The notes below the pieces were generated by a model. The model made no database searches. It was not told the DNA's origin and saw only the letters and a list, made by a program, of their open reading frames with translations. Positions 12,601 through 15,600 of a stretch of 64,000 nucleotides of DNA are shown piece after piece; the first letter of the stretch is position 1; each line of letters starts with the position of its first letter. The position numbers were made by a program, and so were the translations under genes. This stretch comes from Pristiophorus japonicus (taxonomy: Eukaryota), in assembly GCF_044704955.1 (NCBI RefSeq), contig NC_092007.1, forward strand, positions 8,308,001-8,372,000, in the 5' to 3' direction.

Positions 12601-15600
12601 GCCTCCCTGATAAAGTGCAACATCCCCACCGACACCTGGGAGTCCTGGGCCCAAAGACCAGTCTGCCCTAAGTGGAGGAAGTGCATCCGGGAGGGCGCTG
12701 AGCACCTCGAGTCTCGTCGCCGAGAGCGTGCAGAAGCCAAGCTCAGGCAGCGGAAGGAGCGTGCGGCAAACCAGTCCCACCCTCCCCTTCCCTCAACCAC
12801 TGTCTGTCCCACCTGTGACAGGGACTGTGGCTCTCGTATTGGACGGTTCAGTCACCCTAGAACTCACTTTTAGAGTGGAAGCAAGTCTTCCTCCACTCCG
12901 AGGGACTGCCTGTGATGATGGTTTTGGGCGTGTACGAGGTTAGCGATCGGGAGCGAGGCGTTTAGCCGCCGATGCGGAACGTTCCTTCACGGCCCACCGT
13001 GGGACAAACCGCTCGGGGCTGGCCGCTGGCGATCGCCGCGATCCTGCCGTCGGTCCTGGCGCACCGGGCTCCGGTCGGTGGCATCGCTCAGATGTCCGCC
13101 AACTGACCACATCTCCGCCTCTTTCTGTTTCCAGGCGTATCCAGGTGCGTCTGGGAGAGCACGACATCTCGGCCATCGACGGGACCGAGCAGTTCATCGA
13201 CTCGGCGAGAGTGATCAGGCACCCACGCTACAGCAGCCACAACCTGGACAATGACATCATGCTGATCAAGCTCTCCCAGTCCGCCGCGCTCAACCGCAAC
13301 GTGGTGTCCATCGCCCTGCCCACCAGCTGTACGACCGCAGGGGAAATGTGTCTGATCTCGGGCTGGGGTAACACCATGAGCAGTGGTAAGGGGCAGGAAG
13401 GGGTCTCGGGGAACTGTGCCTGATCTCGGGCTGGGGTAACACCATGAGCAGCGGTAAGGGGCAGGAAGGGGGTCTCGGGGAACTGTGCCTGATCTCGGGC
13501 TGGGGTAACACCATGAGCAGCGGTAAGGGGCAGGAAGGGGGTCTCGGGGAACTGTGCCTGATCTCGGGCTGGGGTAACACAATGAGCAGCGGTAAGGGGC
13601 AGGAAGGGGTCTCGGGGAACTGTGCCTGATCTCGGGCTGGGGTAACACCATGAGCAGCGGTAAGGGGCAGGAAGGGGTCTCGGGGAACTGTGCCTGATCT
13701 CGGGCTGGGGTAACACCATGAGCAGCGGTAAGGGGCAGGAAGGGGGTCTCGGGGAACTGTGCCTGATCTCGGGCTGGGGTAACACCATGAGCAGTGGTAA
13801 GGGGCAGGAAGGGGGTCTCGGGGAACTGTGCCTGATCTCGGGCTGGGGTAACACCATGAGCAGCGGTAAGGGGCAGGAAGGGGTCTCGGGGAACTGTGCC
13901 TGATCTCGGGCTGGGGTAACACCATGAGCAGCGGTAAGGGGCAGGAAGGGGTCTCGGGGGAGACAGCGCGAGGAGCCACAAGTGGGGGGGGCTCGGGGGG
14001 GAACGGAGAGGGAGGCCGAGATCCTACCACACTCCCTAACGTGACGGCTCTCGAACCCAACCTGGTCGATTGTGGCGGTTATTTCACGGGGCCATCAGTA
14101 AACGGGGTGGGGGATGGGGGCGGGACTGAGGGCGGTGTTGATGGACAGAACATGTTCCTCACCTTGAGCGTGACAGCAGTCTGTCCCGACGGGGCAGCGG
14201 GGCCGTTGTTCCAGAGACTTCCTTCACTGCGTCACCTCCTCTTGTCTCTCTCTTTCGGACGAGACGTTAAACCGAGGCCCCGTCTGCCCCCTCAGGTGGA
14301 TGTAAAAGATCCCGGGGCCACTATTTGGAAGAAGAGCAGGGGGAGTTGTCCCCGGTGTCCTGGGGCCAATATTTATCCCGCAATCAACATAACAAAAACA
14401 GATGTGATCCGGGTCATTATCACACCGCTGTGTGTGGGAGCTTGCTGTGCGCCAATTGGCGTTTCCCACAATACAACACTTCAGAAAGTACTTCATTGGC
14501 TGTAAAGTGCTTTGGGACGTCCGGTGGTTGTGGTAGGCGCTATATAAATGCCGGGTTGTTGTTTTGATACCAGAGTGTGCAGCCGCGCGATATTACAGCG
14601 ATGTCAATGGGCTCCCGCGCCCTCTAACCTCTGACCCGCCCTTTGACCCCGCAGCGAGCGGTGATCAGCTGCAGTGTCTGGACGCGCCCGTGCTCAGTGA
14701 CGCCGACTGCCACGGTGCCTACCCCGGAATGATCACCGACAACATGATGTGTGTGGGCTTCATGGATGGAGGGAAGGACTCGTGTCAGGTAGGTGACGGG
14801 TCAAGCACGCAGGTGGCGAGCCGCGGAGAGGTCACCGCGCCGTGACGGGGGCGGGGGAGGGGAAGGGAGGGGAGGTCAGACCGCGACCCCTGCCCAGAAA
14901 CCTGTCAATGTTGGTGCTCAGGGAGATTTGGGGTTGTTTGTGCAAGCGAGCATGCAGGTACAGCAAGCAAACAGGAAGGCAAATGGTATGTGGGCCTTCA
15001 TTGCCAGAGGGTTTGAGTACAGGAGCAAGGATGTCTCACTCCAGTTATACAGGGCCTTGGTGAGACCACACCTGGAGTACTGTGTGCAGTTTGGGTCTCC
15101 TTACCTAAGGAAGGATATACTTGCCATAGAGGGAGTGCAGCGAAGGTTCACCAGACTGGTTCGTGGGATGGCAGGACTGTCGTATGAGGAGAGATTGGGT
15201 CGACTGGGCCTGTATTCACTGGAGTTTCGAAGAACGAGAGGGGATCTCATTAAAAGGTATAAAATTCTGACGGGGTTGGGCAGACTGGATGTGGGGAGGA
15301 TGTTTCCCCGGGGCTGGGGAGTCTAGAACCAGGGGTCACACAGTCTCAGGATAAGGGGTCGGCCATTGAGGACTGAGATGAGGAGGAATTTCTTCACTCA
15401 GAGAGGGGTGAATCTTTGGCATTCTCTGCCGTAGATGGCTGGGGAAGCTCAGACGTTGAGTATAGTCAAGGTTGAGGTCGACAGAGTTTTGGAGTCGAGG
15501 GGAATCGAGGGATCGGGCGGGGAAGTGGAACTGAGTCCATGATCAGATCAGCCATGATCTTATTAAATGGTGGAGCAGGCTCGAGGGGCCGAATGGCCGA

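Follow-up and report, generated by a model that had tools for sequence, protein, structure and literature searches.

When a gene offers the spliceosome several near-identical 5' splice sites in a row, which of them is used, and does their number set the output of the gene? This question is raised by a 64,000-nt stretch of DNA from the sawshark Pristiophorus japonicus (NC_092007.1), the whole of which we refer to as the window. It contains three trypsinogen genes with five exons each: gene A (ATG at 7752, minus strand), gene B (ATG at 9573, plus strand) and gene C (ATG at 26601, plus strand). In A and B, the end of exon 3 is continued by a minisatellite that includes the splice donor in its repeat unit.

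The assignment to the trypsinogens (peptidase S1, PF00089) rests on a signal peptide, a DDDDK-IVGG site, the His, Asp and Ser motifs and the five coding exons. In gene B, all on the plus strand, the coding part of exon 1 (9573..9612) specifies the signal peptide and exon 2 (11669..11828) the activation peptide. Exon 3 (13135..13385) measures 251 nt, exon 4 (14655..14788) starts at the acceptor 14654/14655, and the coding part of exon 5 (16995..17144) contains GDSGG with the catalytic Ser, and the stop codon. The translation of exon 3 matches the database proteins P0024 and P0025 to 100% (UniRef, Pristiophorus japonicus "trypsin-like", PF00089). When its DNA was searched against the animal's own genome, three copies only were returned, those of A, B and C.

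Gene A and gene B are very close relatives. Exon 3 (5227..5477 on the minus strand in A) is identical at 251 of 251 positions and exon 4 at 134 of 134, while 4 of 150 bases differ in exon 5 and 12 of 677 aligned bases differ in intron 3 past the array. By this comparison, the pair stems from an inverted duplication of recent date. The two genes stand head to head, with start codons (7752, minus; 9573, plus) about 1.8 kb apart, and may therefore have promoter or enhancer elements in common. Gene C resembles them in patches: there are 0-1 mismatches in about 160 nt of exon 2 and 3 in 150 nt of exon 5, but 28 differences in exon 3 and another 20 within exon 4. This mosaic likeness points to gene conversion between the paralogues or to a shuffling of their exons. 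The exon 4 acceptor is also shifted by 3 nt (14644-14668 in B and 4230-4254 in A versus about 39892-39919 in C). With a slash marking the splice junction here and below, it reads GACCTAG/CGGTGAGT in C and GACCCCGCAG/CGAGC in A and B, over an equal aligned length. Since exon 4 has 134 nt in A and B versus 137 in C, their protein is one residue shorter (ASGDQ versus AVSGDQ). Gene C spans about 31 kb (26601-57460), compared with about 7.5 kb for A and B, and its introns are enlarged by arrays of 33-, 37- and 56-bp units, including 102 copies of the 37-bp unit at 29027-32804. Upstream, the contig carries at least six further trypsin-like genes of more distant kinship (L010-L015, G000:C33:8.09-8.28 Mb), and two of these, L014 and L015, resemble the products of a recent tandem duplication. 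Downstream of the window there is an 84-bp tandem repeat of 6.3 copies (L019:3864-4391), which we take to resemble C2H2 zinc-finger coding repeats.

The gene B array occupies 13340..13959 on the plus strand and contains nine donors; TRF describes it with a period of 68, 9.1 copies, 98% matches and a score of 1169. Its gene A copy (4928..5272, minus strand) contains five donors in 5.1 copies, and matches across both arrays amount to 96-98%. Each unit comprises the last 39 nt of exon 3 together with the initial 29 or 30 nt of the intron, joined at the donor G/GTAAGG, and is 68 or 69 bp long. The authentic first donor of gene B, GTG/GTAAGG (13383..13391, plus strand), restores the full trypsin frame when joined to 14655. 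It is followed by eight reiterated donors (13451..13939, plus strand), seven of them GCG/GTAAGG and one GTG/GTAAGG. The first intron bases of the nine sites lie at 13386, 13454, 13523, 13592, 13660, 13728, 13797, 13866 and 13934; the spacings of 68, 69, 69, 68, 68, 69, 69 and 68 correspond to a higher-order repeat of four units and 274 bp. In gene A, the donors at 5226, 5158, 5090, 5022 and 4953 (minus strand) are spaced by 68, 68, 68 and 69. G/GTAAGG is intact in all 14 donors of A and B, including 12 of the 12 extra ones. Units of 68 and 69 bp differ by one G in the run GAAGGGG(G)TCTC, with the longer form in 5 of 12 units. There are four other single-base variants (C/T at -2, ACC>ACA, ATG>GTG and one GGGG>GGTG). 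Exon 3 of gene C, with its lone donor GCG/GTAAGT, occupies 36976..37232 on the plus strand and has no array. The intron start behind this donor is unrelated (GTAAGTCAC...), and gene C is therefore not a one-copy version of the A/B unit.

This anatomy agrees with the original prediction, which had been made from the letters of the window. TRF and the listing of donors returned the predicted nine, five and one donors for B, A and C, and reading unit by unit gave the same unit composition and the same single G between 68 and 69 bp. The first extra unit indeed has 68 bp in both genes (13386 to 13454 in B, 5226 to 5158 in A). The description of the array as variable in copy number holds between two paralogues of one assembly (9 versus 5), a comparison that stops short of the level of alleles.

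We also considered that the array, or most of its copies, might be absent from the DNA and owe its existence to the assembly. A 26-nt pattern across the unit junction occurs 11 times in the 5.9-Gb genome, always within the A and B arrays, and the reversed control occurs 0 times; hence, the array is not a matter of chance. Contigs from two DNA-like sequencing runs of one sample, X1 and X4, contain the unit-to-unit junction and the C variant at -2, in a comparison that covered 12950-13480, i.e., the first extra unit only. The depth per assembly copy in run X1 is 3.86 for the two-copy exon, 4.04 for the 13-copy core and 4.27 for the 11-copy stretch; in run X4, the corresponding values are 3.22, 4.62 and 4.91. 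Over seven contig classes, this depth ranges from 2.6 to 4.3 in X1 and from 3.2 to 4.9 in X4, and as contig depth is not copy number, the comparison speaks for consistency with the assembly only. An assembly artefact could appeal to the fact that no listed contig spans the whole of 12950-13480, to the 9 versus 5 split, which lies beyond the reach of the contigs, and to the possibility that the DNA runs come from the assembly's own sample. It would have to explain the junction and the -2 C variant in both runs, a depth per copy that is flat in X1 and somewhat higher for the repeats in X4, and units with distinct variants that are ordered differently in A and B. We consider such an artefact extremely improbable.

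The unit carries the microhomology GGGGA at both edges (exon left edge, CAGGGGAAATG; intron right edge, CTCGGGGGAGA), and this short repeat may have seeded a tandem duplication. A single duplication event likely predates the split of A and B. Ordinary minisatellite turnover would then have changed the copy number, including the 274-bp four-unit repeat of gene B, and homogenised the inner units. The partial copy at the end carries an identical run of four Gs in A and B, which points to the 68-bp first unit as the original intron start. Since exons 3 and 4 are identical, A and B would share this unit by descent from one event. In all 12 extra units, TGC stands where the working exon has TGT, and in 9 of the 12, AGC-G stands where the exon has AGT-G; TGC and AGC-G are the gene C-like forms. 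These variants fit an array that is older than the silent changes in the exon, with inner units homogenised and the boundary unit left out.

Tandem repeats are abundant in this part of the genome: in the window and ten loci chosen around trypsin genes, 64 arrays take up 50,884 of 154,505 bases (about 33%). The exon 3 array is G-rich, with five G-runs per unit, a G4Hunter mean of 1.09 and a best 25-mer of 2.12. In all three genes, intron 4 also contains a second G-rich minisatellite, with a 52-bp unit (475-816 in A, 16696-16936 in B and 56994-57247 in C; 6.7, 4.7 and 4.8 copies), which stops roughly 55-65 nt upstream of the acceptor of exon 5. None of the six upstream trypsin-like paralogues fetched has an array across the exon 3 junction. 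In these upstream genes, intronic repeats begin about 40-80 bp from several exon ends without crossing them.

What would the use of a later donor mean for the protein? Splicing from donor 1 gives a full-length ORF with the His, Asp and Ser motifs in both A and B. Reading through the first 68-bp unit of gene B leads to a TGA (13421..13423, plus strand); the TGA of gene A lies at 5189-5191 on the minus strand. When translated in frame, eight of eight later donors in B and four of four in A led to a stop before GDSGG, which confirms the original prediction that distal donors produce a premature stop ahead of the catalytic serine. Premature termination codons typically expose a transcript to nonsense-mediated decay (NMD) if the last junction follows at a distance of over 50-55 nt. 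Over all later donors, 164-644 nt lie between the read-through stop and the exon 4/5 junction downstream of it, so that every later-donor product lies within the distance range of a "poison" switch.

The origin of this stop is less remarkable than its position. The TGA arises from TGC CTG ATC (Cys-Leu-Ile), codons of the conserved exonic stretch CLISGWGN, once the frame is shifted. A unit of 69 bp keeps the frame, contains no stop and codes for 23 aa; the stop therefore depends on the 68-bp length of the first unit. The other shifted frame of the 39 exon-derived nucleotides also stops, at GGT AAC, and any first-unit length that is not divisible by three would consequently give a stop. From random window positions, a stop follows within 12 codons in 34% of cases. 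The idea of a "built-in" poison stop is not borne out: the codons are conserved exon codons out of frame, both shifted frames stop, and the 68-bp unit would have come to A and B from one ancestor. Judged from the sequence, the read-through stop is a by-product and shows no sign of being a device.

By their architecture, the A and B arrays belong to the junction-reiterating minisatellites, a class that also comprises F7 IVS7, LMNB2, PDGF, 6-16 (IFI6), CBS and the amphioxus mirages. Their units stand head to tail and fall within the range of about 10-160 bp, the first unit lies across the authentic boundary, and the donor is reiterated intact. The class has been on record since the 1990s, and the shark trypsinogen pair is an added case. 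A literature search, with most subscription papers beyond its reach, returned, among the matches listed, no report of a reiterated-donor array in trypsinogens, of sharks or otherwise.

The F7 gene, like A and B, encodes a serine-protease zymogen, has its first unit across the exon-intron boundary and offers 5-9 near-identical functional donors. Its IVS7 contains a 37-bp VNTR of 5-9 copies, and although all donors are described as functional, only the most upstream one was found in use (Borensztajn et al. 2006, PMC1557585). In the same account, inactivation of the first donor shifted splicing to the next copy, constructs with 1-6 or 8-12 repeats showed the same pattern, and mutations of the G-triplets left the choice of donor unchanged (PMC1557585). 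A +5G>A mutant of F7 uses the second donor and includes 37 bp, that is, it keeps one frame-shifting unit (PMC4238797). The two systems differ in the unit, which has 37 bp with 4 exonic bases in F7 and 68/69 bp with 39 exonic bases in the shark. In addition, the F7 array is polymorphic in people and its splicing has been assayed.

Other members of the class behave in part like F7. LMNB2 (100-bp unit, 10-15 copies) and intron 4 of PDGF (81-bp unit, 16-18 copies) are reported to use the authentic donor only (PMC1557585); they reiterate the junction in units of more than 45 nt, as the shark genes do, in other genes and sequences. Intron 2 of 6-16, with 25 pseudo-sites, and the 31-bp VNTR in intron 13 of CBS, with 15-20 repeats, have the same reiterated-donor architecture and differ in that two pseudo-sites are used beside the authentic donor (PMC1557585). 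A title cited in that paper links the CBS VNTR to reduced activity (PMC1557585), which makes it, in our reading, the nearest precedent for an effect on dosage. The mirages of amphioxus (Adh3, troponin C, the globins BflGb6 and BflGb9, and PGBD5) are tandem duplications of exon-intron boundaries as well (PMC3087553, PMC3902484). Their splicing is described as undisturbed, and their inner units are homogenised with the boundary units left out (PMC3087553); homogenised inner units are also seen in the shark arrays. Unlike the latter, mirages occur at donor and acceptor ends, and haplotype and somatic length variation have been shown in amphioxus. That a trypsinogen gene amplifies a segment across one of its junctions also has a precedent: the notothenioid antifreeze glycoprotein gene arose from trypsinogen, with a 9-bp piece across the intron 1/exon 2 junction amplified (PMC3449122). 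That repeat is on the acceptor side, in frame and coding, and made a new protein; the shark repeat, situated on the donor side, belongs to the intron and leaves the frame with its first unit.

Of 16 sequencing runs matched to exon 3, four contain 0.95 of its words (DNA-like, one sample), nine contain 0.09 (other organisms or metagenomes), and three same-species runs, including X14 and X15, contain 0.00. Runs labelled as RNA, or possibly RNA, share at most 0.09 of the words, none of the 16 providing RNA with exon 3, and X14 and X15 gave 0 contigs on 12950-13480, which is no proof of absence. The database holds two gene models for each gene, X1 and X2, neither of which takes a reiterated donor. 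The X1 proteins use donor 1 in both genes, in gene B joined to 14655 (NTMSSASGDQL). Stop-bearing forms are seldom listed as proteins, so the silence of the models on later donors is a weak guide. Model X2 (P0123, P0025) implies a weak donor at 13403 in gene B, GGG/GTCTCG, 17 nt into intron 3, together with an acceptor at 14669, 14 nt into exon 4, and equivalent sites in gene A. The pairing energy of this donor with U1 is -3.8 kcal/mol versus -8.5 for donor 1, and the X2 protein has the length of the gene C protein. X2 is likely an artefact of gene modelling. Among the best 120 of 523 protein hits to residues 1-150, we found no truncated or insertion isoform from this species, e.g., one ending in GVSGNCA; this is weak evidence.

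The donors themselves hardly differ. With U1 pairing energy as the measure of strength, the later donors (-8.7 kcal/mol) equal donor 1 (-8.5 kcal/mol). In a fold model, the 9-mer of donor 1 is unpaired with a probability of 0.045, compared with 0.029-0.067 among donors 2-7 and 0.003-0.004 at donors 8 and 9; six of the eight later donors are thus similar to donor 1, and only donors 8 and 9 are predicted to be about tenfold less accessible. Given the similar accessibility of donors 2-7, structural masking of the later donors does not account for a protected donor 1. Single units acting as mini-exons were set aside too: on visual inspection, the G-rich unit lacks a pyrimidine tract ahead of an AG.

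We think it probable that the first donor is used alone or nearly so and that the array is tolerated. The spliceosome would take the first donor almost every time, and we propose that the array is tolerated for this reason. Exon definition and 5'-to-3' first-come selection would both favour donor 1, which yields an exon of 251 nt versus 319-799 nt with the later donors. The five G-runs of each unit, situated between the donors, possibly help donor 1. Silencers between competing sites are known to act against the intron-proximal one, and many of these silencers are G-rich motifs (PMC2095810); since the G-triplet mutations had no effect on donor choice in F7, this helper role is unproven. Rare products of later donors would be cleared by NMD, and the number of units would not be expected to set trypsinogen output. 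Of the two outcomes named in the original prediction, the second, a protected donor 1, is likely the one to expect. Its premise, that two donors of equal strength will often both be in use, holds in part for this arrangement: F7, LMNB2 and PDGF use the first donor only, while in 6-16 and CBS two pseudo-sites are used as well (PMC1557585).

Some leak to later donors may still occur, since strong duplicated donors at least 45 nt apart can favour the downstream one; its use reached up to about 100% in HeLa cells and in vitro (PMC3413131). The 68-nt unit of the shark, longer than the 37 nt of F7, lies beyond this 45-nt range. The arrays could then behave like those of 6-16 and CBS, where 25 pseudo-sites or 15-20 repeats go along with the use of two pseudo-sites (PMC1557585): donor 1 would dominate, donors 2-3 would be used at a fixed level of a few to tens of percent, and the resulting transcripts with premature stops would go to NMD. 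The total number of units would have no effect, as only the nearest copies would compete. Donors of equal U1 pairing, a spacing above the threshold for downstream preference (PMC3413131) and a donor 2 exon of 319 nt, modestly longer than 251 nt, are what such a leak would need. LMNB2 and PDGF, the precedents nearest in unit length, nevertheless use the first donor only (PMC1557585), and the best 120 of 523 protein hits, which include no GVSGNCA-ending protein of this species, point the same way, weakly, such forms being rarely annotated. On balance, we regard a leak of this kind as unlikely. A further proposal is that each extra donor sends transcripts to NMD, so that gene B with nine donors yields less trypsinogen than gene A with five, and that array length is tunable and possibly selected. 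It would account for 12 of 12 extra donors that are intact and lead to an NMD-type stop, and for copy numbers that differ between near-identical paralogues, and downstream preference among duplicated donors is on record (PMC3413131). Intact copies are, however, expected from homogenisation alone, and the stop derives from conserved exon codons. Donor choice in F7 was insensitive to 1-12 repeats, as judged by non-quantitative RT-PCR (PMC1557585). Neither gene C nor any of the six upstream paralogues fetched has the array at its exon 3 junction, so that these paralogues show no sign of a conserved device. We judge this proposal highly improbable, and the tuning of trypsinogen dosage by copy number, as originally predicted, finds no support in the F7 minigenes, where 1-6 and 8-12 repeats gave the same donor choice. 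Equally improbable is its most elaborate form, in which the leak grows with the length of the row of donors and the array serves as an NMD rheostat, tunable by copy number, with different outputs from A and B. In this form, moreover, if the first unit gained a single G, donor 2 would yield an isoform with an in-frame duplication of 23 residues.

With first-donor use as the preferred reading, the shark pair joins the few genes in which donors are known to be reiterated and is, as matters most likely stand, an ordinary case among them. The pair is also a natural experiment of modest value, in which exons 3 and 4 are identical and nine donors compare with five at a spacing of 68 nt. At this spacing, reporter work predicts use of a downstream site, whereas the natural precedents show use of the first site, so that two models of 5' splice-site choice are opposed. 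If the output of A and B did scale with the number of units, these trypsinogen genes would provide a clean case of a VNTR that tunes gene dosage through donor competition and NMD.
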